A stretch of DNA of 64,000 nt from Chlorobiota bacterium (GCA_044228685.1 JBGAUL010000011.1:13886-77885), one strand, 5' to 3'. Shown: positions 875 through 54,391, counted from the first letter of the stretch. Notes: generated from the letters alone by a model not told the origin. Made by a program: numbers and translations.

Positions 875-3070
875 TTAATTCTCAACAACTACCGGCGTGA
901 CCATGCTTGTATTGCCAATTGCAAAGCGCAGATAATACACGCCCGGTTGCATTGTATCGGTATTCAGCTGGAAGCGCGCTGAACCTTTGAACGGAGTGAC
1001 TGATGAGTTCAGGTCTTGAATCTGCTCTCCCATGCTGTTGTACAGAATCATTGTAGGAGCATCGTTGACTCGAAGAGTAGAACTGCAGTTGATAAATGCT
1101 CGCCCATGCACCGGGTTCGGCGTCACTTCAATACTCAAATCGCCGGGATTCGGATTTACCAATCGAGCTCCGGTTGTGTCGTGCCAAACGTTTGAGACGC
1201 TGAACTGACCTCGGATATCATTGATGGCTAAAGGAATCTGCGATTTGTCGCTGTTGTACCAGCTTAGGTTGGAGACTTGCAGATCACAGTGCTCAGCATC
1301 GCCAAGACCGCAGATCATTTTAATCGAAAGCAATTCGCGGGCTGATCGCAGTGTTGTGAGCGTGTCGCTGACGTGTATCGTTTGAACACCATTCAGTATC
1401 GGTCCTCGAAGTGAACTCTCAGCCGGCGTCAACATTGTAGAGTTGAAACACAGGTCAAAGGAAAATGACGACGGCTGGAGTCCAAGAATTGCCGGAGGCA
1501 TGAGAAGCGAATCGATCAGCACTCGAACAAGGACGGTATCACCTACTCGCGCACTGCAATCAGGCACGCGCAAGTAAGGTTTCATGTAGGCACGAATTGG
1601 ATACTCTTGGTCGGGCGAATGAACGATCATTCTGTCCGTACTCAACGAGAATACCGTAGCACTACAAGCACTATCGCATGTCAGAGAGTGAATACCATCG
1701 GAGACCTTTCGTAGATAGTACGAGTAGTCGCTGCCACTAACTTCAACGAAACCGGTTTCAATCGGTTCGCGGTCAAACTCAAGCGACTTTTTTGCATTAG
1801 TCGGAAGACAAACGAGCAAGTATTGCGAGCCATAAACACGAATACCGGAACTACGAATCTGCGGTGCACAAACCACGTGCGAGTTTGTCCATGAGGATGT
1901 TGAAGGAACTGTAAACATAGCTGTGTTACCGAGAGATGTCTGAACATCAGTCGATGACTGCGTGTATTGAACACAGTTGATGGCAGAGCTTCCTTCAACA
2001 ACAACAGCATCATCCAGACCTAGCTCGAATGGTACTCCTGCATCGAGAACAGCCTTTTCTACGCCATTGATTTTGAGATGCGTTTGATCTAGCGCCGCAT
2101 AGATGCGTACATACTGTTTCGTCGTCGAACGAGCATTCTCTGAAACTTTCAACGGCACTAATACAGCCTTGTCGCCCCATCGCTCAACCGGATCACATTG
2201 TTGATACACCGTTCCGGTTTGCGTGTTTGGATAAATACCGTTATCGGCACCCGGACTTACTGCAGACTGATGTCCGGAAAAGACAGCTATTGGTTTTGTG
2301 GCTTTGATAATCACACCACTCATGTCAGTGCGAACACTTGTGCCTTCAATTGCAGATTGAATGAAATACGCTTCGCCTTTATTGAGGCTTATGCTGATCT
2401 TACCTTCTGATTCGTGCGAGGTTGGACCGTGAAGTTGTATGACGATATCGGTTGCATCATCGCGAGCAATGACCGCACATTGCGATGGCGTGGACTTGGT
2501 CCAATCCACATCACTGCTACCGGACTGTGGATGCACCAATGTTGAAGGCAGTGAACTGAGGATGTAACTGCGACCGAGGATTGATGTCGGTAGAACTAGA
2601 GTTGCAGCATCGCCGTTTTTGCTATGCGTAACCATGACGCACTGCACCGCGGAGTCTGCGTGAATAGCAAGTACCTGCGAACTAAGTATTGTCTCGGCTT
2701 GATCTGATGCTTGATAAACGCTGTCCACTAGACGACCGCGTAACTCTATGTTGGAATATGGAAATGATACCGTGCTTGAGCGACGAGGATCGATAATGCG
2801 GAATGTCTGATGAATGACCTTGCCGTCGTAACCACGAACGTCAATCGTCCCACTCGCATAATACTGCGAGCTGAAAACCAGACTCAGTGAATCTCCATTT
2901 TGATGAATCGCAGGTAAATAAGTCAGAAGAAAATCTGTCCCTGCGTTTGTGGCTGTAGCGTCTGTATCTGATGCTACAAGTCCGGTACCGAATGCCAACG
3001 CAACGAGAAGACGTAGAGTCCAAACTCGAGTGGCAAAAGCAGCTGCACTAACAATGCGAGCTCTGCACAT
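875..3070 (-). CDS. Secreted protein with type-A Por/T9SS C-terminal sorting domain (function unknown)
   Basis: 731 aa with an N-terminal signal peptide. C-terminus ...VTPNPVHGRAFINCSS...ILYNSMGEQIQ...LNTDTMQPGVYYLRFAIGNTSMVTPVVVEN matches the TIGR04183-type CTD pattern (PNP..., G.Y.v motif). Confidence 0.6.
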   Translation of the reverse strand: MCRARIVSAAAFATRVWTLRLLVALAFGTGLVASDTDATATNAGTDFLLTYLPAIHQNGDSLSLVFSSQYYASGTIDVRGYDGKVIHQTFRIIDPRRSSTVSFPYSNIELRGRLVDSVYQASDQAETILSSQVLAIHADSAVQCVMVTHSKNGDAATLVLPTSILGRSYILSSLPSTLVHPQSGSSDVDWTKSTPSQCAVIARDDATDIVIQLHGPTSHESEGKISISLNKGEAYFIQSAIEGTSVRTDMSGVIIKATKPIAVFSGHQSAVSPGADNGIYPNTQTGTVYQQCDPVERWGDKAVLVPLKVSENARSTTKQYVRIYAALDQTHLKINGVEKAVLDAGVPFELGLDDAVVVEGSSAINCVQYTQSSTDVQTSLGNTAMFTVPSTSSWTNSHVVCAPQIRSSGIRVYGSQYLLVCLPTNAKKSLEFDREPIETGFVEVSGSDYSYYLRKVSDGIHSLTCDSACSATVFSLSTDRMIVHSPDQEYPIRAYMKPYLRVPDCSARVGDTVLVRVLIDSLLMPPAILGLQPSSFSFDLCFNSTMLTPAESSLRGPILNGVQTIHVSDTLTTLRSARELLSIKMICGLGDAEHCDLQVSNLSWYNSDKSQIPLAINDIRGQFSVSNVWHDTTGARLVNPNPGDLSIEVTPNPVHGRAFINCSSTLRVNDAPTMILYNSMGEQIQDLNSSVTPFKGSARFQLNTDTMQPGVYYLRFAIGNTSMVTPVVVEN

Positions 3071-4836: not shown

Positions 4837-6891
4837 ATGACGGAGCCACTCGACGAACAAGAACGTCCACTTTCGCTATCCCTGAAGGAGAAAATTGCCT
4901 CCTTGCCTACTCGTCCAGGCGTCTATTTTCACAAAAACGACGAAGGAAAAGTCATTTATGTTGGAAAAGCAAAGAACATCCGTAACCGCGTTCGCCAGTA
5001 CTTCGACCATAACCGTCAGGTCGATGCCAAGACCAAAGTCCTAGTTTCCAAAATCGCCGACGTCGACGTCATCGTAACCGACTCAGAAGCTGAAGCACTC
5101 ATCCTCGAAAACAATCTCATCAAGCAACACAAGCCACGCTATAATGTGTTGCTGAAGGACGATAAGAGTTATCCCTATATCCGCGTTACAAACGAAGAAT
5201 TCCCTCGAGTCTTCTCAACGCGGAAGGTGATTCGTGACGGGAGCAAGTACTTCGGACCATACACCGACCTACGATACATGTATTCGCTGTTGCGAACACT
5301 TCGCTCGCTCTTCCCCCTTCGTAGCTGCGATCTGCCATTGACTGAAGACACGATTGCTATGCAGAAGTACAAGGTGTGCTTGGACTATCATATCAAGAAA
5401 TGTGAGGGTCCTTGTCAGGCCTTTGTCGACCGTCTGCACTACAACGAGCACATCCGTCAATCAGTGCAAATCCTCAACGGTCGCACTCGTGAAGTCGAGA
5501 AACAGCTTGAGGAACAAATGATTATTCTCGCTGAAACGCTGCGCTTCGAAGAAGCTGCACAAGTGCGAAATCGTTTGGAAGTGCTGCGAGAATATTCTGA
5601 GCGACAAAAAGTCGTGAGTACCGATGAGTTCGATCGTGATGTCTTTGCTCTTTCGCGCGATGACCACGATGCGTGCACGGTGATTTTGTCCGTGCGCGAC
5701 GGCAAGCTCATTGCCAAGCGTCATTTCTACGCGTCCAATGTCCTGCATCAAACAGACGCTGAGATCATTGAAGGAGCGATGTCGCGCTACTACATGGAAT
5801 CGGATTTCATTCCTCCGGAGATCTTCCTTCCCTGCGACATTATCAACGATGATTTCATGATCGACTGGCTCTCCAAGAAGCGAAGCGCGGCTGTCGATCT
5901 CGTCGTACCGAAAATTGGCGAGAAGAAGAAGCTCGTCAATATGGCAACCGCAAATGCTGAATTCTTACTTCGCGACTTGCAATTGCAACACATGAAGCGT
6001 GAAGAATCGGTGCCTCGTGCAGTGGCTTCATTGCAACGCGATTTGCAGCTGAGCCGTGCACCGCGTCGAATTGAGTGCTTTGACAATTCCCACCTTCAAG
6101 GCACAGATTACGTGTCGTCCATGGTTGTCTTTGTTGATGGACGTCCGCGCAAAGCTGATTATCGCAAATTCAAAATCAAAAGTTTTGTTGGCAACGATGA
6201 CTTCGCCGCCATGCGTGAGGTTGTGGAACGTCGTTATCGTCGCTTGCTGGCTGAGAACGGTCACTTACCCGATCTCATCATCATCGACGGCGGTAAAGGA
6301 CAGCTCTCCTCTGCAGTCGAAATTCTCACTCGACTGGATCTCTACGGCAAGATCCCGATCATCGGTCTTGCAAAGCGTCTTGAAGAAGTCTTTGTCCCTG
6401 AACAAAGCGACGCCGTCATTCTCCCTCGCAGCTCCAGTGCACTTCGTCTGCTGCAACAACTACGCGATGAAGCTCACCGCTTCGCCATCACCTTCCATCG
6501 TGAACTGCGCTCGAAGCGAACGCTTCAAACTGAGCTCACTGCTATTAAGGGTCTGGGCGAAAAATCCGCCCAACGTCTACTCACCGAACTCGGCTCCGTC
6601 GAAGCCGTACGCAACACCAGCGAAGAAGGCATCGCCGCAATCGTCGGTAAGAGTTTAGCAAAACGAATCCGGGAGTATTTCGATACGAGTACTGACACGG
6701 CAACTTCAGGGATCGACAATCACGATGCTCAAGATGCGATTGTCGAAGAATTCTCACATCGCGATTTGGAAGAGGTTCATGTACCGGACGATGAAAGCAT
6801 GGACGAATCAGCTCGTTCTCACGAAAATGAAGATTCTCAAAGCCAGGATATTTCTGAAGACTCACTGAGTAACGGGCAGCAATCCAACTAA
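4837..6891 (+). CDS. uvrC: Excinuclease ABC subunit C (UvrC)
   Basis: GIY-YIG motif GVYFHKNDEGKVIYVGKAKNIRNRVRQYF, a UvrC/RNase H-like core, and a C-terminal HhH (IKGLGEKSAQRLL). It has an extra roughly 70-aa acidic C-terminal tail. Confidence 0.9.
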   Translation: MTEPLDEQERPLSLSLKEKIASLPTRPGVYFHKNDEGKVIYVGKAKNIRNRVRQYFDHNRQVDAKTKVLVSKIADVDVIVTDSEAEALILENNLIKQHKPRYNVLLKDDKSYPYIRVTNEEFPRVFSTRKVIRDGSKYFGPYTDLRYMYSLLRTLRSLFPLRSCDLPLTEDTIAMQKYKVCLDYHIKKCEGPCQAFVDRLHYNEHIRQSVQILNGRTREVEKQLEEQMIILAETLRFEEAAQVRNRLEVLREYSERQKVVSTDEFDRDVFALSRDDHDACTVILSVRDGKLIAKRHFYASNVLHQTDAEIIEGAMSRYYMESDFIPPEIFLPCDIINDDFMIDWLSKKRSAAVDLVVPKIGEKKKLVNMATANAEFLLRDLQLQHMKREESVPRAVASLQRDLQLSRAPRRIECFDNSHLQGTDYVSSMVVFVDGRPRKADYRKFKIKSFVGNDDFAAMREVVERRYRRLLAENGHLPDLIIIDGGKGQLSSAVEILTRLDLYGKIPIIGLAKRLEEVFVPEQSDAVILPRSSSALRLLQQLRDEAHRFAITFHRELRSKRTLQTELTAIKGLGEKSAQRLLTELGSVEAVRNTSEEGIAAIVGKSLAKRIREYFDTSTDTATSGIDNHDAQDAIVEEFSHRDLEEVHVPDDESMDESARSHENEDSQSQDISEDSLSNGQQSN

Positions 6892-9405: not shown

Positions 9406-10836
9406 TTAGAGCATGTACTTGCTCAAGTCCACATTGTGTACCAGCGAAGCCAGTCGTTCTTGCACCATCGTCTTAGTGACGATCACGTTATTGTCGGCTA
9501 TGAGATCAGGTGCGTCAAAAAGAACCGGATCCAGCAAAGCAGACATCATTGTTTGCAATCGTCGTGCTCCAATATCGGCAATTTGATTGTTCACCGTCGC
9601 AGCCGTCTCTGCCAGCTCGCGAAGGGCTTCGTCTTCAAACACAATATTGACTCCTTCAACTGCCATCATTGCCTGCATTTGCTTGGTAAGAGCGTTTTCA
9701 GGCTGAGTGAGGATCTTGTAGAAGTCTTCAGCATGCAACGACTCAAGCTCTACACGAATTGGGAATCGTCCTTGCAACTCCGGAATGAGATCACTTGGTT
9801 TGGATACATGAAATGCACCGGATGCAATGAAGAGAACGTGGTCGGTCTTGAGTGCTCCATACTTCGTATGCACGGTCGAACCTTCAACGATTGGCAAGAG
9901 ATCACGCTGAACGCCTTCGCGGGAGACTTCGGGTCCGGACGACGCTGAGGACTTCGACGCGATCTTGTCGATCTCATCGATAAACACAATGCCGTTGTTC
10001 TCTGCTCTGCTTAGCGCTTCGCGAACCACAGCGTCCATGTCGATCAATTTTTCCGACTCTTCTTCTTCCAACAACACACGTGCTTCCGCGATGCTCATCT
10101 TCTTACGCTTGTTCTTCTTTGGCATCACGCCGGAAAACATCTCCTGAAGATTGATGCCCATGTCATCGAGTCCAATTGGTCCCATCACATGCATCGACGG
10201 CATCTGGTCCATCTCGATATCCAACTCTATTATTCGATCATCCAGCATTCCTTGCTGATACATGTGTCGCATGAGCTCACGAGTTTGCTCCCGATCCTCG
10301 TCGTTTTGCAACGCACTCACATCAAAGGATGCGTGCGGAATTGGAGGCATCAAAAGCTCAATAATCCGATTCTCGACGGCGAGAATTGCCTCGCGGTGCT
10401 TCTCGGCGCTGCGTTCGGCTCTCACCATTGCGACAGCCGTTTCGGCAAGATCTCGGATCATGCTCTCAACGTCTCGTCCAACATATCCGACCTCGGTGAA
10501 CTTGGTTGCTTCAACCTTCACAAAAGGTGCAGCTGTGAGTTTTGAGAGCCGTCGAGCGATCTCGGTCTTTCCCACTCCTGTTGGTCCAATCATCAAAATG
10601 TTGTTTGGAATAATCTCATCGCGCAAGTGACCACTGACCTGCTGACGACGCCAACGATTGCGCAAGGCAATTGCTACGGCGCGCTTGGCTTGATGTTGAC
10701 CGATGATGTACTTGTCTAGTTCATCGACGATCGCTCTTGGGGTCAATGATTTCGAAACATCAACGGTCTGCTCACTCACAGAGCTCGAATTCACTTCGTC
10801 GTTGATGTTATTGGTACTGAGTTCAATACTGTTCAT
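9406..10836 (-). CDS. hslU: ATP-dependent protease ATPase subunit HslU
   Basis: IGQHQAKRAVAIALRNRWRR...MIGPTGVGKTEIARRLSKL...FVKVEATKFTEVGYVGRDVES. ClpX-like AAA+ protein with an inserted I-domain. Confidence 0.92.
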   Translation of the reverse strand: MNSIELSTNNINDEVNSSSVSEQTVDVSKSLTPRAIVDELDKYIIGQHQAKRAVAIALRNRWRRQQVSGHLRDEIIPNNILMIGPTGVGKTEIARRLSKLTAAPFVKVEATKFTEVGYVGRDVESMIRDLAETAVAMVRAERSAEKHREAILAVENRIIELLMPPIPHASFDVSALQNDEDREQTRELMRHMYQQGMLDDRIIELDIEMDQMPSMHVMGPIGLDDMGINLQEMFSGVMPKKNKRKKMSIAEARVLLEEEESEKLIDMDAVVREALSRAENNGIVFIDEIDKIASKSSASSGPEVSREGVQRDLLPIVEGSTVHTKYGALKTDHVLFIASGAFHVSKPSDLIPELQGRFPIRVELESLHAEDFYKILTQPENALTKQMQAMMAVEGVNIVFEDEALRELAETAATVNNQIADIGARRLQTMMSALLDPVLFDAPDLIADNNVIVTKTMVQERLASLVHNVDLSKYML

Positions 10837-10919
10837 TTGATTTCAATTGTAATGCTGCAGGAGCGGCAGCAGCGATGGATGAAGAAGTTCCTCACGCGAA
10901 AGAGCGTGCGGAACCATGA

Positions 10920-11480
10920 CTACAATTCTTCTATACAAAGCTGATCATTGGTGTACACACAAATATCTGCTGCGATTTTTAGCGATTCCTCAACAATCTG
11001 TCGTTCCGTCATTGGTGTATGTTTCATCAGCGCTCGTGCGGCAGCAAGAGCGTAGTTGCCTCCGGAACCAATAGCAATGACGTTATCGTCCGGCACAATC
11101 ACATCCCCCGTTCCGCTCATCAAGAGCAACTCGCTGGAGTTCATCACAACCAGCATTGCCTCGAGCTGACGCAAGTACTTATCTGTTCTCCATTCTTTGG
11201 CTAGTTCAACCGCGCTGCGATAGAGTTGCCCGCGATGCAATTCAACCTTTTCTTCAAAGCGTTGAAGCAAGGTAAAAGCATCTGCCGTGGCTCCAGCGAA
11301 ACCACAGAGTATCGAGTTGTTGTGGATGCGTCGCACTTTCCGTGCACCGCGTTTGAGTACAGTTTGGTTAAAACTCACCTGACCATCAGCGCCCATACAG
11401 GCTTTGCCATCACGCAGCACAGCAACAACCGTGGTTGAACGAACAATGAGTTTTTCATCGGAAGCAGTAAATGCATTCAT
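10920..11480 (-). CDS. hslV: ATP-dependent protease subunit HslV
   Basis: N-terminal TTVVAVLRDGKACMGADGQVS (Thr1 N-terminal nucleophile protease), 186 aa, immediately upstream of hslU. Confidence 0.9.
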   Translation of the reverse strand: MNAFTASDEKLIVRSTTVVAVLRDGKACMGADGQVSFNQTVLKRGARKVRRIHNNSILCGFAGATADAFTLLQRFEEKVELHRGQLYRSAVELAKEWRTDKYLRQLEAMLVVMNSSELLLMSGTGDVIVPDDNVIAIGSGGNYALAAARALMKHTPMTERQIVEESLKIAADICVYTNDQLCIEEL

Positions 11481-12090: not shown

Positions 12091-12789
12091 TCATGCTTGA
12101 GCAGCGCTCATAATTCTCCCGTCTCGCATCTGAATAATGCGCTGCGCTGACGCCGCTATCTCTGCGCTATGGGTTGCCACGATCATCGTCAATGAACGTT
12201 TTGATCGAATGTCCAAGAGAATCTCGAGTATGCTCATCGAATTAACGGAATCAAGATTACCCGTCGGCTCATCGGCAAAGAGGATTTCAGGATCATTGAT
12301 CAGCGCTCGAGCAATAGCGACGCGTTGTTGTTCACCTCCGCTGAGCTCTGATGGCTTGTGTTCCAAGCGATGACTCATTCCTACGCTCTCGAGCAACGAG
12401 GTAGCTTTGATCTGCGCTTCTTTCATAGCGGCACCGGCAATGAGCATGGGCATCATCACGTTTTCGCAAGCGGTGAATTCCGGGAGAAGTTGATGGAATT
12501 GAAAGATGAAGCCGATGTGCTTGTTGCGAATCTTTGAGAGCTCGGATATGGGAAGTTCAGTAATTCTAAGCGTCTCGGAGCCAATTTGCAGATCAATCGT
12601 GCCGCTGTCGGCTTTGTCGAGTGTTCCTAAGAGGTGTAGTAAGGTACTCTTTCCTGCACCTGATGGACCAACCAACGCCACAAACTCTCCTTTTTCAATA
12701 TCGAGCGATACCTCGCGTAAAACAACGGTATCGTTGGGTTGCAGGAGAGAATATGACTTGAATAGCTTTTCAGCGCGAATAAACGACAT
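12091..12789 (-). CDS. ABC transporter ATP-binding protein (LolD/FtsE/MacB-type)
   Basis: Walker A GPSGAGKSTLLHLLG, ABC signature LSGGEQQRVAIARAL, Walker B ILFADEPTGNLD, 232 aa. Confidence 0.85.
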   Translation of the reverse strand: MSFIRAEKLFKSYSLLQPNDTVVLREVSLDIEKGEFVALVGPSGAGKSTLLHLLGTLDKADSGTIDLQIGSETLRITELPISELSKIRNKHIGFIFQFHQLLPEFTACENVMMPMLIAGAAMKEAQIKATSLLESVGMSHRLEHKPSELSGGEQQRVAIARALINDPEILFADEPTGNLDSVNSMSILEILLDIRSKRSLTMIVATHSAEIAASAQRIIQMRDGRIMSAAQA

Positions 12790-32332: not shown

Positions 32333-33997
32333 TTACCAGCGACGACGCTTTGGTGGTTGATCGTTGCCATATCCAAAGGAATTGCCGTCGCGACGATTTC
32401 CTTCATTGGGGTTTGGGCGACCGAAGTTGCGGTTTGGACGAGGTCCGCGATTGAATCCCGGACGCTTGTTGTAACCATTACCTTCACGCATTGCGTTTTG
32501 GTCGAAGCGTGAATAGTTTGCTCCTTCACGATTACCAAAGTTCTCGCGACGATCGTAGCTCTCGTCGTAGAAGCTGTTTGTGCTTTCTGCTTGATTGGTA
32601 GCCGGTTGTTGCTCTTCACGAATTGCATTTGGTGGTGCTTCACGATCATCGCGGAAGCCCGGACGATAGCGACCATTATTGCGATTGTTTCTGTAACCGT
32701 TGTTGTTTGAGCGACGATTGTTGCCTTGGTTATCCTGACGATTGTTGCCGTGTGAACGGTAGCCTCCGCCATTGTTTGGTGGAACGCCTTCAGCGCGAGG
32801 TCCATCGTAGCGTGGTTGCTCCGGACGTGGTGCATCGCCATCGCGAGGAGGACGATCGCCGTTTTGGAATCGACGGTTGTTGTTGTTGTTATTATTATCC
32901 CAGCGACGCTTGTTGTTCCAACGACGTGGGCCATTATTGTTCCAGCCTCCGCCGCGTTCACGATAGCCATCACGACCACCATGTTCGCGTTGCGGTTCGC
33001 GTTGTTCTTCACCTGCTTCGCCGCCTTCGAACATTTGCTCAGCATCGCCTAAAACACTGACCGGCTCATAATCATCGATGCTAATTGGACGTGGTGCATC
33101 GTCATCGGATTCCGGAACCGGAATGGCTGTAACGACTTCTTCCAGCGGATCAGCGTCGGTAGATGCACGGATCAAACGTCGAACTGCAGGACGCTGTTGT
33201 TGCTCTGTTGAGTCTTCTTCTCTCTGTGCGCTCTGCTCCTGTGTTGCAGTGCTAGCTTGAACACGTTGCTCAGCATAGACTTCGACATCATCAAACACTT
33301 CAGAAGAACCTTCAATGACGATTACGTATTCGCCGCGGAATTTGTGCTCTTCAAAATGGGCTTCCAATTGCTTCAATGAACCGTATTGATGTGCCTCCGA
33401 ACTCATGGTGAGGTTGCAACCAACATAGGCTTGACGATCCGGCATTACTTCAGCGAGAGCAGCGAGTATGGTCTTGAGACGATATGGTGTATCCATCAAG
33501 ACAATTGTTCTATTCTCACGAGCAAGCTTGCGGATCTCGCGATCACGCTCTTCGTTTTTGCGGCTCAGAAAACCTGCATAGATGAACTGACGTGTATTAA
33601 AAGTGCTACGTACGAGTGCGGTGAGCACGCTCGATGCACCGGGTAATACGCGCACATCAATGTTGTACTTAACAGCAGCTTTGACCAGGATATCACCTGG
33701 ATCTGCCAACAGTGGTGTACCTGCATCGCTGATGAGCGCAAGTTTCTTTCCTGCTGTTAAGAGCTTCATGCATTCGACGCTTGATTCAGTGTCATTGTGC
33801 TCATTAAGCTCAATAATCTCCTTCTCCATGTCGTAGTGCTTTAACAAGCGAATCGCCTCTTTTGACTCTTCGCAAACGACAACGTCTGATTCTTTGAGTG
33901 CTTCAAGCGCTCTCAGCGTAATGTCGCTATAGTTGCCGATCGGCGTCGCAACGACCGATAATGTTCCGGCTGCCTTGGGTGTGGCAGATTTTTTCAT
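32333..33997 (-). CDS. rsmI: 16S rRNA 2'-O-methyltransferase RsmI fused to a long C-terminal low-complexity (acidic then RG/N/Y-rich) tail
   Basis: N-terminal roughly 230 aa GTLSVVATPIGNYSDITLRALEALKESDVVVCEE...LISDAGTPLLADPG (tetrapyrrole-methylase fold, RsmI signature). A further roughly 320 aa are rich in D/E, then R, G, N, Y (RRWNNKRRWDNNNNNNNRRF...GYRNNRNNGRYRPGF). Confidence 0.8.
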   Translation of the reverse strand: MKKSATPKAAGTLSVVATPIGNYSDITLRALEALKESDVVVCEESKEAIRLLKHYDMEKEIIELNEHNDTESSVECMKLLTAGKKLALISDAGTPLLADPGDILVKAAVKYNIDVRVLPGASSVLTALVRSTFNTRQFIYAGFLSRKNEERDREIRKLARENRTIVLMDTPYRLKTILAALAEVMPDRQAYVGCNLTMSSEAHQYGSLKQLEAHFEEHKFRGEYVIVIEGSSEVFDDVEVYAEQRVQASTATQEQSAQREEDSTEQQQRPAVRRLIRASTDADPLEEVVTAIPVPESDDDAPRPISIDDYEPVSVLGDAEQMFEGGEAGEEQREPQREHGGRDGYRERGGGWNNNGPRRWNNKRRWDNNNNNNNRRFQNGDRPPRDGDAPRPEQPRYDGPRAEGVPPNNGGGYRSHGNNRQDNQGNNRRSNNNGYRNNRNNGRYRPGFRDDREAPPNAIREEQQPATNQAESTNSFYDESYDRRENFGNREGANYSRFDQNAMREGNGYNKRPGFNRGPRPNRNFGRPNPNEGNRRDGNSFGYGNDQPPKRRRW

Positions 33998-35079
33998 ATA
34001 AAAACTGTGAGGTATATGTGTGTGGATGTATTAATCTTTTTGTCTGTTGTTGTAGCTGCTACAGTACCAAAGCTTAGTGAATACGGTACAGCTTCACCTA
34101 TTATTCTTCTTCTCTTCACCCTTTTTGAGTATTGACCTTGAAAGTTGCTTCTCAAAATTCTTGACTTGCGATTCCAATCATGACTATTCTAATTCTTTCC
34201 GAAGCGGTCACATGCGCTGCTTAAACCGGCTCTGACTTTTTTGAAGTGCCTCTCTGTTCCAGCGTCTGCTAGTTTGGTCTAGTCTCAGCTAGTCTTTACT
34301 GCACCTTGCAATGCATGCTTTCTGGATTTCATTAGCATCACTCATGATCACTCATGGAAGCCTTTACAGATTCCCGATGCTACCGTCAATTGATTCTGCA
34401 CTCTCCGTGTGCTGACTTTTGTGTGGATAATCACACCCTATTTTCTTCTCTACACTGAAGCCAATGGCAATTGTTACCGTGTACTATCTAGTACCGAATC
34501 GTCGTCATTTCTAGCTGTTCATGCCCTTAATGAAGTCAGATTCTGACCAACGATGTGCTTAGCTATCCGAGGTGGAAAGCGGTAGATTACCCCTTGAACT
34601 TCGAGAACTAACTACGAACTGCAAACTTGGAAATGAGCGTGTGACTCATCAGTCCAACGCTGTCAATTCATTTGAGCGAATTGAAGCTCCTTCACCTTCC
34701 ATTATCAAACCTACAGTGCTGCTGTCTGAGGCATGGAAGTCCGCCGTTCATGTTGTACATCTTGTATCAACCTTCCGGCACTGAGAGACAGATCAAAGTT
34801 ACAACATCAAACTACAATCTCCAACAAAAACACGATGTTGTTTGTTCGGTTACAAATCGGAGTTTATTAACTCAATACCTCATTGACCAATTTCATCACT
34901 ACATCAGTATCAGCTATGAGAGCATCCTCTTCTCAACATGTACTCGGGTTGTCACGAATAAAATCTATCGACGAGGACTAGGCAGGTACTTGGTGATTCT
35001 CGTGGTGTCGGCGTTATGAAAGATTCAGACTTTCAGCTCAACGCGCTGCATTTCTGTTGCAATATACGAATAAGGGAGC

Positions 35080-35120
35080 TTAGAAAAACGAACAGCCATC
35101 CGAGAGACGGATGGCTGTTG
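35080..35120 (-). terminator. Rho-independent terminator downstream of the thioredoxin-like gene
   Basis: Perfect 12-bp stem aacagccatccg / cggatggctgtt with loop agaga (35091-35119). On the minus transcript it is followed by CGUUUUUCU. Confidence 0.6.
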
Positions 35121-43621: not shown

Positions 43622-45676
43622 TTAGTGGACGACCATTAGCTGCTGCACATAGCTTCCACTGCGCGTTTCCACCAGAACTTGATAGGAACCTGTAGCAAGC
43701 TCAGAAACATCTAGATTTAGGCGATTATCGACATTTTGAGCCTGCACTGCGAATTCCTTCACTACACGTCCCATCATATCAGACAAGCGCACCAGAGTAA
43801 TGGTTTCATTCTTTGAATTCAGGGCTAGATGAAGCACTGAGGCTGCCGGATTTGGATGGAAAAAGAGTCGATCCGACGATTCTTCTGAAACTGCTGCGGG
43901 AAGAAGCTTTGCGCTGTAATAGATACCGGAGCCGTTAGAGGCTGTAAGAACGTTTGGATCAGAAAGACCAACTGCGGTACAGTATTGATTATCTAGACCA
44001 GCTTTGTGTTGAGTCCAGGTAGACGCATTGTCTGTACTTGACCACACAGCATTACCAAATGTCGCAGCATAGAGTGTGCCTTCATCTCGACACACTGCAC
44101 TGACTCCAGTTTGCAATATGGAATTCAGAGAGCGGTGTTCCCAGCTAGAACCTTCGTAATTACTGAAATAGATGTCGTCGGTGTAAGTACTTGCGATGAT
44201 CTTGTCGTTCGTAATGACCAACGATTGAATTGACAAGCTACTATCACGAAACACAAGCTGCCATGACTTTGTTGTGTCAACTGAGCGGTAGATGCAGCCT
44301 TCGCTACTTCCAGCGAAGAGATTGCCTCGCACTCTGACGAGACAGAGAATTGTTGATGAAGCAATACTCGGTCTATCGAATGATTCACCGTTATCAGTTG
44401 TTACATACAACCCACTATCGAGCGAACCAAAGATCTCATGACCGGCAAAGCTGATTCCACAATACAATGTGCGACCTGATAAGAAGAACTGATTCCAAGA
44501 ATCGCCGTTATCGGAAGAGTAATAAAATCCGTCATCTGTCAGTGCAAGGACGATTCCGTTGTTCGCGCTTATCTGATACACCATACCACTGAAATCCAAC
44601 CATTCCCAATTCATACCACCATCGTTTGATCTAAGTATTCCATCGCCTGCCGCAAAGCAGCTCGAATTGTTTTGACAAAATGAATACATAGGTGCTGCCG
44701 TCAATCCATCGCTGCAGTCTGTAAAGCTCAAGCCGTTGTCAGATGAATAGTAAACGCCATAGTCATAGCTTCCGGCAAATACCTCAGAGCCATTGTAACA
44801 AAGTGCATACACGGTCATTTGGCTTAAGTCTGAATTCTGCCATGCTCCTGTTCCAACGCGAGAGATGACGCCCGAAGTATCGGTACCGACGAAGATTCTA
44901 TCTGCATGCAGCATGAGCGACCAGACTGATTGAGCTCCGATACCGGAATTCGTCCACGTTTTGGCACCATCGACACTTCTAAACAATCCTTGCTCTCCAC
45001 CTACATACAGCTGAGTTGAATCTCCGCATACAGCGTACAAGCCCTTCTTGCTGACAAGTCCGGTCTTTGTCCAGGTTTTACCATTGTCTTTTGAACGATA
45101 CAAACCACTCTGGTCAGCCAGCGCATATATCTCGGATCCAATGATGCACACGGAGTAAACCGTCTCACCTTTCAGACCTTGAGTCCACTCTGCACCATCA
45201 CTACTACAAAACACTCCGTTTGCATCGGTACCAACACATATAAGATCAGTTGTTGCTGCAACACTCCAAACATATTCTGAGGTGAGATTCTTCGTCCATG
45301 TCGAACCACCATCCAAGCTCTTGAACACACCACCGGAACCGTCTTCATCTGAATATCCAATCCCGGCATACACTGCTTTACCATCTGTGCAGAGCGCATT
45401 TATACTGGCTGAATGTATTCCTTCGCTCAGCCAGTGCTTTCCGGCATCGGTTGATATAAAGAGACCAACCTCGGTTCCGGCGAGCATCGTATTGGCATCA
45501 AGTGTGACGAGCGAAAGCACGGTTCCACCATCACCGCCACTACTATGATTCCACTGGAGTTGTTGTGCTTGGAGATTCACTGTCGTCACGAGACAGAGTG
45601 CAGCACACAAAACAAATGAGTAAAAGATGGCTTTCATGACAGTACGGAATATTTGTAAAGCGATGCGCTGGAGCAT
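43622..45676 (-). CDS. BNR/Asp-box repeat beta-propeller protein with T9SS C-terminal sorting domain
   Basis: About 11 S-x-D-x-G-x-T-W repeats (TDAGKHW, LDGGSTW, SKDNGKTW, SVDGAKTW...). C-terminus FHPNPAASVLHLAL...LATGSYQVLVETRSGSYVQQLMVVH. The likely start is MKAIFYSFVLCAALCLV (about 45637). Confidence 0.6.
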   Translation of the reverse strand: MLQRIALQIFRTVMKAIFYSFVLCAALCLVTTVNLQAQQLQWNHSSGGDGGTVLSLVTLDANTMLAGTEVGLFISTDAGKHWLSEGIHSASINALCTDGKAVYAGIGYSDEDGSGGVFKSLDGGSTWTKNLTSEYVWSVAATTDLICVGTDANGVFCSSDGAEWTQGLKGETVYSVCIIGSEIYALADQSGLYRSKDNGKTWTKTGLVSKKGLYAVCGDSTQLYVGGEQGLFRSVDGAKTWTNSGIGAQSVWSLMLHADRIFVGTDTSGVISRVGTGAWQNSDLSQMTVYALCYNGSEVFAGSYDYGVYYSSDNGLSFTDCSDGLTAAPMYSFCQNNSSCFAAGDGILRSNDGGMNWEWLDFSGMVYQISANNGIVLALTDDGFYYSSDNGDSWNQFFLSGRTLYCGISFAGHEIFGSLDSGLYVTTDNGESFDRPSIASSTILCLVRVRGNLFAGSSEGCIYRSVDTTKSWQLVFRDSSLSIQSLVITNDKIIASTYTDDIYFSNYEGSSWEHRSLNSILQTGVSAVCRDEGTLYAATFGNAVWSSTDNASTWTQHKAGLDNQYCTAVGLSDPNVLTASNGSGIYYSAKLLPAAVSEESSDRLFFHPNPAASVLHLALNSKNETITLVRLSDMMGRVVKEFAVQAQNVDNRLNLDVSELATGSYQVLVETRSGSYVQQLMVVH

Positions 45677-50913: not shown

Positions 50914-51015
50914 AATTCTCCTAAGACTACGCTATACTACGATAGAATTACGGTCATGTGCAACAAAACATTTTTTCGCGCGCTCCAGCTCCTCTATTTT
51001 CGTACATCGTTTAGT

Positions 51016-51173
51016 AAAGGTGCTTCACTGTATAGCTGAAGAGAATAGGGAATCCCGTTAAATCCGGGAACGGTTGCGCCGCCGTGAAGGTTGACAAACT
51101 GTCACTAAATCCACTGCTTTATTGCGGGAAGGACGACAGTGCGAATGAAACCTGAGTCGGAAGACCTGCCTTT
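51016..51173 (+). promoter_or_regulatory. Cobalamin (AdoCbl) riboswitch
   Basis: GAATAGGGAATCCCGTTAAATCCGGGAACGGTTGCGCCGCCGTGAAGG matches the conserved core (AGGGAA..GGTG.AATCC..GC.G..CCCGCCACUG-like). The B12 box AGTCGGAAGACCTGCC is at 51154-51170. Candidate P1 is AAAGG(51016-20)/CCTTT(51169-73). The downstream leader has hairpins and a T9 run before the ATG at 51322. Confidence 0.8.
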
Positions 51174-51321
51174 GCTACTCATCGTGTCCACATGGACTGC
51201 ACTGCGCCAACAGTGCGATGAGGAAACTTCTTCGTTGTGCACTGCGGTCCTCGCAGCACCTTCTAGTCGTTTCCCCTTTCTTTTTTTCGTCGTCCGGCAG
51301 ACGGCACAACTACATTCTAAT

Positions 51322-52419
51322 ATGCGTATTTCTTTTGCGTCACTCGTGCGAGTGTTGCTTGTCGTATCCTGTCTTGTCGGACTCTATAGCTGCACCGACA
51401 CCATAGCACCGGCCGGCACCGGCAGTACTGTCGCCGACTCATCGGTCATTGTTGTTAATCAAGGGGGTTATCAACAGGACAACTCATCTCTTAGTCGAAT
51501 CCTCCGTCGTAGCGATTCTGTGGATCGTAGCTGGTTCTCTAGTGCCAATTCCGGACGAAAGCTCGGAGCAAATGCAAACAACATGCTCATCGTCGGTGAC
51601 ACCGCCTTCATTAGCGTTACCGGTTCTCATACCATCGAGGTTATCAATGTTCGTACCGGTACTCTTGTCAAAACACTGCACCTCGATAACGACGAACAAC
51701 CATGGGTTTTCACACAAGTCAATAGCAGCCTCGCAGCCGTCTCAACAAATAACGCCGATGGCTTGCGCTTGTTTAATCCTAAAACACTGGAGCTTCTGGA
51801 ACGCGTCACAACAGGACCTGCAACACAAGGCATCGCCGCGACTGCCTCTTCGATCTTCGTTGCCAACTCCGGTGCGGGAAGTCTTCGAGATACTGCTGCA
51901 GGCGCCGGCACGATTAGCGTCGTTGACGCGGTGAGTCGTATGACAACGCACCAAATCAACTGCGGCAAGAACGTCACAGAACTTATTTGCAGCGACGATG
52001 CAAAACGTGTTTACGCCTTTGTATCTGAGCTGTGGCCAAGTAAGAAACAACAAGTTGTTGAATATGATGCCGTGAGTTTTCTTGAACGACGTCGCTGGAC
52101 TTTTACAGCTTTGGGATTCATGAACTACTATCAGAACGCAGTGTACGTTTTGGCAAAAGTTGATTCCAACGATGCTGCTTGGAGTGTGCTACGTATTGAT
52201 GTCTCACAGAGCTCCCCAACGCCAACTGCCCTCTTCACTCTTCCCGCGAGCTTTATGCCGAATGGGATGAATATTCGTCGCAGCGATGGAACATTTTGGA
52301 TCTGCGACGCCGTTGATTTCGCCAGCAATGGCTTTGTCTCGGTCATGGATGCACGTGGCACCCAACTCAAGCGCTTCGGCGTTGGTTTAAACCCAGGCAA
52401 CATTTGCTTTTTCCATTGA
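51322..52419 (+). CDS. Surface lipoprotein with YVTN/YncE-type beta-propeller repeats, BtuG-like candidate
   Basis: Lipoprotein signal MRISFASLVRVLLVVSCLVGLYSCTD, and repeats of the type FVANSGAGSL...ISVVD. The longer ORF from 51139 would run through the riboswitch, so 51322 is the supported start. Immediately upstream of the TonB-dependent receptor. Confidence 0.55.
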   Translation: MRISFASLVRVLLVVSCLVGLYSCTDTIAPAGTGSTVADSSVIVVNQGGYQQDNSSLSRILRRSDSVDRSWFSSANSGRKLGANANNMLIVGDTAFISVTGSHTIEVINVRTGTLVKTLHLDNDEQPWVFTQVNSSLAAVSTNNADGLRLFNPKTLELLERVTTGPATQGIAATASSIFVANSGAGSLRDTAAGAGTISVVDAVSRMTTHQINCGKNVTELICSDDAKRVYAFVSELWPSKKQQVVEYDAVSFLERRRWTFTALGFMNYYQNAVYVLAKVDSNDAAWSVLRIDVSQSSPTPTALFTLPASFMPNGMNIRRSDGTFWICDAVDFASNGFVSVMDARGTQLKRFGVGLNPGNICFFH

Positions 52420-52432
52420 ACCTCGTCAATAG

Positions 52433-54391
52433 TTGAACATTCGAGTTCTGATATTGTGTGCCCTGTGCTTGCTACAGGGTCGACTTGATGCATCCGTTGC
52501 ACAGCGCGACACGAGCAGGTATAAGGTTGCGCCTGTGCAGGTTGAAGCCGCACGAGTTGAGCCCGCTCGATTGGTCTCTGGTTCTAGCCTTGCGATTCTC
52601 AGCGATTCCCAATTCACGCGATTGAATATTCGGCAGAGTTCGGATATTCTTCGCATGCTTCCGGGCGTGTTCATACATGAGTATGGCGGATTAGGTGGAA
52701 TAAAGACAGTGTCGCTGAGAGGCGCAACTGCCGCGCAAAGTGCCATCAGCATCGACGGAATGAGTTTGAATTCCTCGCAGAATTCAATCGTCGATCTCAG
52801 CCTGATTCCAACCGGCATACTATCAGAAGTATCTGTTCACGATATTAGCGATCTCTCCGCATCGAACGCCAATGCAATTGGTGGAACGGTATTGATGCAC
52901 ACTCGGAGTCTATCGGACAGCGTTTCACACCTTCGTGCGACGCTGTCCTATGGTTCATGGAATGAACTCAGTGCGGATATCCGATCAAGTTTTGCTCTTG
53001 GCGCATCGTACTTCGCGGCTCTGGGTTTTATGCATCGCCGATGCGACGGTAACTACTCATTCGCATTCAACAACTTTGGTCGTACTGAAACACTACAACG
53101 ACAGAACGCGGATTTATCTGAGTACCAAGTTCATGCTCAGATTGAAGGTAGCGGTGCCGGAGTGAATACTAAGTCATTGCTCATTGCAACGCAGTCGGAT
53201 CGAGGTGCACCGGGTTCAGTGACACAGGGCAACGTTGGACAAAGCTTTGCTCGACTCAACGATCAGCAAGTTATTCTCATTGAGAAAATCAAATTCAATC
53301 TCGATTCCGAGCAAGCGTTGAGTCTGAGCCTGAGTGCAAAACTGAGCAAACAGGTTTATGCAGACCGGAGCTCGCAGTCAATTGGGGTTGCTTTCACGAA
53401 TACATTTCGTGAGCAAGACTGGGGACTGCACCTGCATACACGAAGAAACGTCCTTTCGTGGCTTCAAGCTGAATCGAGCGCGGACCTCGGTCGCGCAGCA
53501 TTGCAGGGCGACCTTCTTAGCGCCGGCGTTGGCAAGTCCGTGCAACGCATCAATGCAGGTATCGGATTTTCACTGAGTACACGCACATTGCTCGTAACAA
53601 ACTCCTTGAGTCTCACGCCGCTCGTCGGACTGCGCTTCGACGCATTGAGCGATGCTCGTCCTTTTTTATCGCCTCGTGCCGGCCTGATCCTGCAATACAC
53701 CGACATACTTGTAATGCGACTCAACTGGGCTCGCGCCTTTCGTCAGCCTTCTTTCAACGAACTCTATTACCAGAACTACGGGAGCACGAATCTGTCGGCC
53801 GAGACATCAGAGTCAGTGAGTGCGGGTTTCGATCTTCATCTTCCACAAGTCGCTTCCATACAAAGCACACTGGCACTGAGTACATTTCACCGCTACACCA
53901 CTAATCAAATCATGGCTGTTCCCCGAAGTCCTTTGACTTGGAGCGCTGTGAATATTGGCGTGGTTGAAGCAAACGGACTTGAGACTGCTGCTGCTTTATC
54001 ACTCGATAGCATCGTACATATTCGCGTCTCTTACACCTACCAAGACGTTCGCGATGCACGTTCGGGCAGTATTCACGAAGGGCAGAGAATTATCTACACA
54101 CCTGATCAACTTCTGGCACTGAGTGCCGGGTTTGATGTGCTGGGATTTCGCTTCGGAGCACAGTTTAGTTTTGTATCGCGGCGCTATTCACAAGCTGACA
54201 ACGCGCCGGAATCTCTACTCCCTGCGTGCACGACTATAGGATGCAGTGTCGAGCGACGATTCAGATTCGCTCAAGTGTATGCATCGCTACGCTTTAGCCT
54301 CGACAATCTGACCGACCAGCAGTACATCATTATCCCCAATTATCCAATGCCTGGACGCTCCTTTCGTCTTAGTGTTGATGTTGGCTTGTAG
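52433..54391 (+). CDS. btuB: TonB-dependent outer-membrane receptor, BtuB-like (vitamin B12 transporter candidate)
   Basis: Plug-domain motifs ...ILRMLPGVFIHEYGGLGGIKTVSLRGATAAQSAISIDGMSLN... resemble BtuB, with a 22-strand barrel-like remainder. Downstream of the cobalamin riboswitch. Confidence 0.7.
   Translation: MNIRVLILCALCLLQGRLDASVAQRDTSRYKVAPVQVEAARVEPARLVSGSSLAILSDSQFTRLNIRQSSDILRMLPGVFIHEYGGLGGIKTVSLRGATAAQSAISIDGMSLNSSQNSIVDLSLIPTGILSEVSVHDISDLSASNANAIGGTVLMHTRSLSDSVSHLRATLSYGSWNELSADIRSSFALGASYFAALGFMHRRCDGNYSFAFNNFGRTETLQRQNADLSEYQVHAQIEGSGAGVNTKSLLIATQSDRGAPGSVTQGNVGQSFARLNDQQVILIEKIKFNLDSEQALSLSLSAKLSKQVYADRSSQSIGVAFTNTFREQDWGLHLHTRRNVLSWLQAESSADLGRAALQGDLLSAGVGKSVQRINAGIGFSLSTRTLLVTNSLSLTPLVGLRFDALSDARPFLSPRAGLILQYTDILVMRLNWARAFRQPSFNELYYQNYGSTNLSAETSESVSAGFDLHLPQVASIQSTLALSTFHRYTTNQIMAVPRSPLTWSAVNIGVVEANGLETAAALSLDSIVHIRVSYTYQDVRDARSGSIHEGQRIIYTPDQLLALSAGFDVLGFRFGAQFSFVSRRYSQADNAPESLLPACTTIGCSVERRFRFAQVYASLRFSLDNLTDQQYIIIPNYPMPGRSFRLSVDVGL

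Follow-up and report, generated by a model that had tools for sequence, protein, structure and literature searches.

A cobalamin riboswitch ahead of BtuG-like and BtuB-like genes in a Kapaibacterium-like lineage of the Bacteroidota

Overview of the locus

This work concerns a cobalamin riboswitch and the two genes that follow it in a stretch of 64,000 nucleotides (nt) from a genome labelled Chlorobiota bacterium (GCA_044228685.1, JBGAUL010000011.1:13886-77885). This whole stretch is referred to as the window, and positions are counted from its first letter. The riboswitch aptamer lies at 51001-51187 on the plus strand, as do the leader elements and both genes discussed here. It is followed by a btuG-like gene (51322-52419), which encodes a lipoprotein of 365 amino acids (aa) predicted to form a seven-bladed beta-propeller, and by a btuB-like gene (52433-54391, with a TTG start), which encodes a TonB-dependent transporter (TBDT) of 652 aa. 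Together, these elements most probably form a small operon for the scavenging of B12. A riboswitch with a BtuG-like and a BtuB-like gene had been proposed in an earlier sequence-only reading of the DNA, and all three components find support in the searches described below.

The cobalamin riboswitch aptamer

Rfam models were scanned at the gathering threshold over the whole 64-kb window, and the only match was to the cobalamin riboswitch family RF00174 at 51001-51187 (90.9 bits against a gathering score of 31.5, E = 3.3e-21, cmscan). The match is untruncated, spanning positions 1-189 of the 189 in the model with the peripheral extension included, and the aptamer is a bona fide cobalamin aptamer. 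Its core motifs are AGGGAAUCC at 51047-51055, AAAUCCGGG at 51060-51068 and GCGCCGCCGUGAAGG at 51076-51090; the two strands of helix P1 are at approximately 51010-51020 and 51169-51177; and the B12 box AGUCGGAAGACCUGCC occupies 51155-51170. Both AGUCGGAAGACCUGCC and AGGGAAUCC are unvarying across the orthologous leaders. The core motifs that the sequence-only reading had assigned to an adenosylcobalamin (AdoCbl) riboswitch are thus all in place, and the family assignment it had made without a database search is borne out by this strong, full-length match. The B12 box it had named is also present, but it begins one base later than the 51154 given there. By analogy with the behavior of the RF00174 class and of the Bacteroides btu loci, the RNA at 51001-51187 probably binds cobalamin, and high B12 would repress the downstream genes, making it an OFF switch.

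The btuG-like gene and its protein

The reading frame of the lipoprotein is open from a GTG at 51139 to 52419, across the aptamer, as the sequence-only reading had seen. The identical public protein (P0001, 424 aa) has a gene call equivalent to 51145-52419, which starts within the aptamer. If that call were correct, the real gene would be the long open reading frame (ORF) from 51139 or 51145, and an N-terminal extension of about 60 aa would be translated through the aptamer. We consider this extremely improbable, as the extension overlaps an RNA structure recognized at 90.9 bits. Moreover, eight homologues (26-49% identity; 356-403 aa, with six of them at 356-370 aa) align from the ATG at 51322; all have a hydrophobic signal sequence and retain Cys24, which aligns with the Cys32 named in BtuG2 (PMC6143338). 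In the AlphaFold2 model, nothing is folded before residue 40, and in two orthologous loci (L002 and L003) the in-frame upstream translation meets stop codons. On these comparisons we place the start at ATG 51322, where the sequence-only reading had put it, and regard the public call as an annotation error. Cys24 is the predicted site of lipidation. A close btuG homologue is named only 'YncE family protein' by NCBI.

The nearest solved relatives of the lipoprotein are BtuG proteins, both by sequence and by predicted fold. A phmmer search against the sequences in the PDB placed BtuG1 first (8PTF/8PTD, E = 6.8e-15, residues 40-363), with 8BLW_B, the BtuG1 chain of the BtuB1G1 complex, at 2e-14, followed by BtuG2, BtuG3 and 3DSM, while other propellers were far weaker (1L0Q, 0.096; 3VGZ, 1.1). 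A profile built from nine homologues sharpened this ranking, giving 2.2e-44 for BtuG1, 1.1e-32 for BtuG2 and 2.2e-32 for BtuG3, against 7e-6 for YncE. The identity of these PDB entries as BtuG was checked in PMC10404256 and bioRxiv 10.1101/2024.02.16.580637. The AlphaFold2 model is an all-beta propeller with a predicted local distance difference test score (pLDDT) of 88.4 and a predicted template-modelling score (pTM) of 0.84. When it was compared with the PDB by Foldseek, ranks 1-16 were all BtuG1, BtuG2, BtuG3 or 3DSM (E from 9e-22 to 1.5e-19, template-modelling score 0.74-0.87); after these the E-values worsen by over six orders of magnitude, to 2.7e-13 for BtuK1, and an archaeal YVTN propeller stands at about 1e-13. 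Clear homology to a pyrroloquinoline quinone (PQQ) enzyme, which the sequence-only reading had named as the finding that would speak against a B12 function, was not seen: the NCBIfam models TIGR03866 (PQQ-associated; 24.5 against 287 bits) and NF052280 (YncE; 16 against 400 bits) stay far under their cut-offs.

The btuB-like receptor gene

Only 13 nt separate the btuG stop at 52419 from the TTG at 52433, the spacing that the sequence-only reading had given. The public call starts the receptor at a second TTG, 52454, which yields a protein of 645 aa; TTG 52433 is probably the better choice because it gives a better signal peptide (MNIRVLILCALCLL...). The receptor has the Plug and 22-strand barrel architecture of a TBDT, with Pfam matches to Plug PF07715 (1.8e-11) and to the barrel PF00593 (2e-29).

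Among PDB sequences, the receptor matches BtuB1 of Bacteroides thetaiotaomicron over its full length (2.7e-45, residues 6-650 against 13-679), followed by BtuB3 (4e-19), BtuB2 (8.5e-16), E. coli BtuB (6.8e-11) and CirA (1.9e-9, in the plug only). Chain 9gbc_A, whose annotation says no more than TonB-linked outer membrane receptor, also matches, at 1e-05. Beyond CirA, no siderophore or heme receptor in the PDB reaches an E-value of 1e-3. Grouping with siderophore receptors, the second outcome that would have counted against the sequence-only reading, is therefore not what the ranking gives, since BtuB proteins occupy the top and CirA shares only the plug.

In B. thetaiotaomicron, the tip of extracellular loop 8 (EL8) pushes B12 out of BtuG, and the loop carries a conserved aromatic residue, which is Tyr538 in BtuB3, Trp in BtuB1 and Phe in BtuB2 (PMC10404256). 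By pairwise sequence alignment, W503 of the receptor falls at this position, in the context TWSAVN, compared with IWSMVN in BtuB1 and FYSPVN in BtuB3. Tyr538 of BtuB3 is Y518 in the 693-aa chain, offset by 20 in the 713-aa numbering. Because of this ambiguity in numbering, the EL8 tip of BtuB3 (Ser524-Leu531) was left unmapped and only Tyr538 was placed.

Conservation of the locus and its host

The order of riboswitch followed by btuG recurs in seven further distinct loci (L002, L003, L007, L008, L009, L012 and L014), with RF00174 matches of 92-111 bits just 5' of btuG in each, L003 being counted together with contig L004. A TBDT gene adjoins btuG in L002, L003, L007, L008, L009 and L013 and is present wherever the contig allows. 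A longer block, consisting of aspS, two GT9 genes, a divergent GT2 gene, the riboswitch, btuG, the TBDT gene and uvrA, is found in two metagenome-assembled genomes (MAGs) named 'Chlorobiota bacterium' (L002/L006 and L003/L005) and in the Logan contig L004. The riboswitch-btuG-TBDT arrangement is shared by MAGs that go under the names 'Candidatus Kapaibacterium sp.' and 'Bacteroidota bacterium' (L007, L008, L009), and riboswitch and btuG are found on two short contigs (L012, L014).

NCBI taxonomy places Kapaibacterium within the Bacteroidota, in the class Eximiradiia, and the window encodes proteins with the C-terminal tail of the type IX secretion system (T9SS), which is consistent with a Bacteroidota host. 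BtuG was reported as exclusive to Bacteroidetes on the basis of gut genomes (Wexler et al. 2018, PMC6143338). The present case is within the Bacteroidota but far from the Bacteroidia.

Two distant DUF5074 relatives, P0009 and P0010, were considered as btuG orthologues and were not counted as such because their short contigs carry no riboswitch. These two, with 27-30% identity, lie at L010 5001-6098 and L011 2821-3891; one has no adjacent TBDT gene, and around the other the order is TBDT, T9SS-tail protein, propeller. No match was obtained when a genome-contig collection was scanned with the single lipoprotein, or when metagenome contigs were scanned with the DNA pattern of the platform and with alignment A3; the alignment of nine sequences had diverged too far to yield a search pattern.

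The putative corrinoid pocket

The pocket of the lipoprotein was mapped by sequence alignment alone. For this purpose, the BtuG1 and BtuG2 sequences were rebuilt from printed alignments, and their numbering was verified on 14 published residues of BtuG2 and six of BtuG1 (among the matching residues are Cys32, E55, F58, Q93, N107, W149, W194, Q219, Y239, W272, Y316 and Y335). Arg135 of BtuG2 and Glu139 of BtuG1, as given in the preprint, disagree with the rebuilt count, which has Arg at 133 and Gln at 139.

The pocket positions that are kept or BtuG1-like include G48, Y50, N86, Q126, S183, G184, N217, F266 and F333. Y50 aligns with BtuG2 F58, which stacks on the dimethylbenzimidazole (DMB) lower ligand, while F266 and F333 take the positions of BtuG2 W272 and Y335. 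In the same blade-1 loop, N54 (BtuG2 N62) is invariant; it is not a listed contact in the papers.

Leader elements from promoter to start codon

A candidate promoter -7 box, TATTTTCG, is located at 50995-51002 and matches seven of the eight positions of TAnnTTTG, which we take to be the Bacteroides-type -7 promoter element. A box of this type lies 5-6 nt 5' of the Rfam match in 8/8 loci and is exact in the seven others, where it starts at 5661 (L002), 5468 (L003), 3568 (L007), 3507 (L008), 3519 (L009), 1844 (L012) and 1189 (L014). As the motif is not enriched across the window (18 exact copies on both strands), the evidence lies in its conserved position. This suggests that Kapaibacterium-like organisms may use promoters of the Bacteroidota style. 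A consensus scan for sigma-70 promoters and terminators gave nothing useful in the leader.

Directly 3' of P1, the leader is predicted by folding and covariation to form a three-way junction (51178-51222). Its closing stem, CUCAUC (51178-51183) paired with GAUGAG (51217-51222), is unvarying in sequence and encloses hairpin A (51186-51197) and hairpin B (51199-51216), whose stems both covary. All 17 pairs of the junction are 100% paired in six distinct sequences, with compensatory changes at five pairs against none in all slid controls, and the region has a minimum free energy (MFE) of -19.1 kcal/mol (z -2.97). Hairpin B occupies the place of P13 in class-I cobalamin riboswitches and is a candidate P13/L13 regulatory hairpin. 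Its loop is CGCCAA (51205-51210), with an invariant CGCCA core, and shares only the palindromic GCGC with loop L5 (UUGCGCC), in which GCGCC is invariant. Because both loops are invariant, no covariation is available, and an L5-L13 kissing loop stays a candidate.

The next element is a long terminator-like hairpin with its tail (51222-51287), recognized by folding and conserved architecture. A purine box, GGAAAC (51222-51227), pairs with a pyrimidine box, GUUUCC (51269-51274), around an inner hairpin at 51237-51259, and is followed by the tail CCUUUCUUUUUUU (51275-51287), in which a T7 run at 51281-51287 lies inside TTTCTTTTTTT (51277-51287). The hairpin is unusually stable for the window (MFE -16.9 kcal/mol, z -2.99), and a purine-box/pyrimidine-box stem around a non-conserved insert was predicted independently in every locus. 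The sequence-only reading had named a hairpin followed by a T9 run as a candidate attenuator. A U run after a stem is indeed present, but it has seven bases, not nine, and it follows the longer composite stem (51222-51227/51269-51274) and not the small hairpin at 51237-51259 directly; the attenuator stays a candidate. At L003 5690-6001, as in its L004 counterpart, an insertion of about 200 nt in this helix gives an aptamer-to-start spacer of 310 nt.

A start-proximal hairpin, GUCGUC-CGGCA-GACGGC (51289-51305), lies 17 nt 5' of the ATG. RNAalifold reports six pairs with compensatory changes, and the loop GGC is conserved in a seven-sequence alignment; its stability alone is ordinary (z -1.64). 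A GCACUG repeat (51199 and 51239) that could compete for CAGUGC at 51211 as an antiterminator was rejected as a general mechanism because it is absent from L002, L007 and L008. MFE folds of the whole leader were undistinctive (z -1.35 and -1.84); pairings of the aptamer and of the platform were intermingled in them, and they were set aside.

Proposed function and alternative explanations

We read the locus as a riboswitch-controlled operon of two genes with which a Kapaibacterium-like bacterium of the Bacteroidota scavenges B12 (corrinoids), the riboswitch being of the cobalamin type, and we assign this reading a probability of about 0.85. It builds on the aptamer, on what homology and predicted fold say of the two proteins, and on an operon architecture that is conserved. 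The btu loci of B. thetaiotaomicron are riboswitch-repressed by B12, and their BtuG and BtuB proteins form a lid-barrel complex (PMC10404256, PMC6143338). In the operon described here, transcription probably starts just 3' of the TAnnTTTG-type box. At high intracellular cobalamin, the ligand-bound aptamer would shut off the downstream genes: it may dock the P13/L13-like hairpin B and stabilize the three-way junction, after which the long hairpin (51222-51274) and its U-rich tail would halt RNA polymerase ahead of the ATG. Under B12 scarcity, transcription would continue through the operon. The lipid-anchored, probably surface-exposed propeller would then capture corrinoids in its central pocket while sitting as a lid on the BtuB-type transporter, and the EL8 loop with W503 may help to free B12 from the lid so that it enters the barrel and is imported with energy from TonB.

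Several observations weigh against this reading as regards the proteins. The lipoprotein scores 24.2 bits with Pfam PF16819 (DUF5074), just under the 27.2-bit cut-off that BtuG1 (50.0) and BtuG2 (73.9) pass, and members of its clade range from no hit to 27.9 bits. For this reason, 'BtuG-like' is the right wording, and its sequence places the protein in a BtuG lineage that has diverged to the margin of the curated family. The receptor misses the NCBIfam BtuB equivalogs, models built around proteobacterial BtuB (TIGR01779, 99.3 against 599.7 bits; NF007926, 71.7 against 836), and the TonB-hemin model scores 92.5 bits, close to the top model TIGR01779 (TonB-B12). The export signal after Cys24 (C-T-D-T) is weak, so surface exposure is at best probable; BtuG2 likewise has no canonical export signal after its cysteine. 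In the pocket, three charged contacts are replaced throughout the clade (E55 by Q47, R133 by W128 and BtuG1 E180 by Q169), with further changes in the close clade (N107 to T100 and Y316 to N314), while the distant relatives P0009 and P0010 retain E, R and E at the positions of Q47, W128 and Q169. Lastly, a scan of most window ORFs of at least 130 aa turned up neither btuFCD nor genes for B12-dependent enzymes.

The charge replacements, the sub-threshold PF16819 score and the failure of the TBDT family models to separate B12 from heme receptors could also indicate that the propeller and the TBDT are a generic YncE/DUF5074 lid-transporter for a non-corrinoid substrate or a restricted precursor (cobinamide), with the riboswitch merely co-regulating them. 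P0009, which has no riboswitch or TBDT gene nearby on its 6.6 kb contig, points the same way. Such a substrate is nevertheless very unlikely, given that a cobalamin riboswitch lies 5' of the pair in all eight loci, that, among solved structures, the B12-specific BtuG and BtuB come closest to the two proteins, that most hydrogen-bonding and aromatic pocket positions are kept or BtuG1-like, and that an exchange of E for Q retains the capacity to hydrogen-bond amides. The pocket appears recognizably BtuG-like, if less charged, and corrinoid binding is a reasonable prediction for it. It is also possible, though we think it unlikely, that the Kapaibacterium-like BtuG clade is functionally shifted in affinity or corrinoid selectivity through Q47, W128 and Q169, and that its riboswitch uses a lineage-specific expression platform unlike the described P1- and P13-based ones. 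Such a platform would consist of the sequence-invariant three-way junction, then the long purine/pyrimidine-box helix, and then the start-proximal hairpin.

Within the B12-scavenging operon, transcription attenuation is the most likely route for the expression platform, a view that we hold tentatively and at slightly less than even odds. The stability of the long hairpin (z -2.99) and its conserved architecture speak for it, and in six of the eight loci the stem is immediately followed by five or more consecutive U; additionally, B12 alters btu mRNA levels about 70-fold in B. thetaiotaomicron (PMC6143338). Against it stand the weak U tails of the two remaining loci (L003 and L012), the roughly 200 nt inserted into the putative terminator stem of L003, and the absence of a conserved antiterminator among the compared leaders. 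The consensus terminator scan of the leader does not report the long hairpin either, as a long composite stem falls outside the scanner's rules. The weak U tails, the L003 insert and the negative scan would also fit a riboswitch that acts mainly on translation initiation, on mRNA stability or via Rho, and not through an intrinsic terminator, with the purine/pyrimidine helix and the hairpin at 51289-51305 as parts of a translational or folding platform. We regard this as a serious alternative, with a chance somewhat under one half. The conserved, covarying start-proximal hairpin, which has no role in a pure terminator model, speaks for it, and cobalamin riboswitches of the kissing-loop (KL) type often control translation. 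Sequestration of the start site is mildly disfavored because the 40 nt around ATG 51322 are nearly unstructured (-3.6 kcal/mol), and the compared leaders show no conserved pairing with the start region.

Comparison with known systems

The closest parallels are BtuG-BtuB loci 1-3 of B. thetaiotaomicron (PMC6143338; PMC10404256), especially BtuB1G1 (8BLW, 8PTD, 8PTF). There, too, a cobalamin riboswitch lies upstream and a seven-bladed propeller, lipidated at its N terminus (as is predicted here), adjoins a BtuB-type TBDT. BtuG1 and BtuB1 are the best solved relatives of the two window proteins; the lipoprotein shares with BtuG1 the residues N86, Q126, S183, G184 and N217 and the aromatics at 50, 266 and 333, and the receptor shares with BtuB1 the Trp of EL8. 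The lipoprotein differs from BtuG1 and BtuG2 in being only 22% identical to them, from the 663-aa BtuG1 in having no fused BtuH domain, and from Bacteroides BtuG in the clade-wide, charge-neutralizing pocket substitutions Q47, W128 and Q169. Unlike the B. thetaiotaomicron loci, the operon has two genes and contains no btuFCD, btuH, btuJ or btuK; none of these turned up among the ORFs scanned elsewhere in the window. The host is an environmental, Kapaibacterium-like lineage of the class Eximiradiia, unlike the gut Bacteroidia.

The likeness to the Bacteroides BtuG-BtuB pairing had been recognized in the sequence-only reading, which took the position of the propeller gene ahead of the receptor gene as a difference. 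Locus 2 of B. thetaiotaomicron begins with BT1957 and includes btuG2 as BT1954 and btuB2 as BT1953 (PMC10404256, PMC6143338). If the genes are co-directional, these locus tags imply that btuG2 is probably transcribed before btuB2, and the supposed difference is probably wrong.

Judged from its sequence, the RNA resembles the class-I members of RF00174 (AdoCbl type, with a peripheral extension and an L5-L13 kissing loop) in its full-length match to the model, its B12 box and a hairpin 3' of P1 in the place of P13. It differs from them in that this hairpin is enclosed in a three-way junction of invariant sequence, which is followed by the purine/pyrimidine helix and a further conserved hairpin. 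No description of such a platform was encountered, although the literature was not searched for one. The E. coli btuB riboswitch and BtuB (1NQE) likewise combine a B12 riboswitch with a TonB-dependent B12 receptor, whose plug is homologous to that of the window receptor (E = 6.8e-11). However, a BtuG lid is absent from E. coli, significant alignment is confined to the plug, and the window TBDT is much closer to Bacteroides BtuB1. YncE and the PQQ-associated propellers (TIGR03866, NF052280; 3VGZ, 1L0Q) belong to the same seven-bladed, YVTN-type superfamily as the lipoprotein, which is set apart from them by family scores far under the cut-offs and by PDB matches much weaker than those to BtuG.

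Significance of the locus

The system is a known one, BtuG-BtuB with a riboswitch as in gut Bacteroides, and it opens no new question. What the locus adds is reach, as it extends lid-assisted BtuG-BtuB uptake with riboswitch control beyond the gut Bacteroidia to an early-branching environmental class of the Bacteroidota, whose Kapaibacterium-like MAGs are partly labelled Chlorobiota. Its occurrence in an early-branching class suggests that the lid-barrel design is old within the Bacteroidota. The locus also draws attention to a recurrent annotation error, in which the btuG call begins within the aptamer and the product is labelled no more than 'YncE family' or hypothetical, and to the fact that Pfam DUF5074 at its curated cut-off misses the Kapaibacterium-like clade. 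For structure-function work, it offers a minimal two-gene system with the natural pocket variants Q47, W128 and Q169; if the clade is indeed functionally shifted, the loss of three charged contacts would alter BtuG affinity or corrinoid selectivity.

Other features of the window

Two genes outside the operon that resembled B12-related functions were rejected on closer assignment. The ABC ATPase at 12091-12789 was considered as BtuD and is LolD-like, and a TP_methylase match at 32333-33997, considered as a corrin methylase, is RsmI. The latter is a 554-aa ORF on the minus strand, in which the first ~235 residues are RsmI (16S rRNA C1402 2'-O-methyltransferase; TIGR00096, 195 bits) and run on into a low-complexity tail, some 310 aa long and with much N, R, G, D and Q, a fusion that is unusual for RsmI. 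Next to it, about 1.1 kb (~34000-35090) lacks any ORF of at least 130 aa and any tRNA, and Rfam models do not match there even at E <= 1; this gap sits between the start of rsmI and the terminator-like hairpin of an AhpC/TSA-family gene (35093-35118, minus strand). Two large secreted proteins with T9SS C-terminal sorting domains are encoded on the minus strand at 43622-45676 and 875-3070; BNR/sortilin-type repeats occur in one of them, while the other is IgGFc-binding-like. At 9406-11480, also on the minus strand, an HslU-like AAA+ ATPase adjoins the proteasome-type subunit HslV, an ordinary housekeeping pair.

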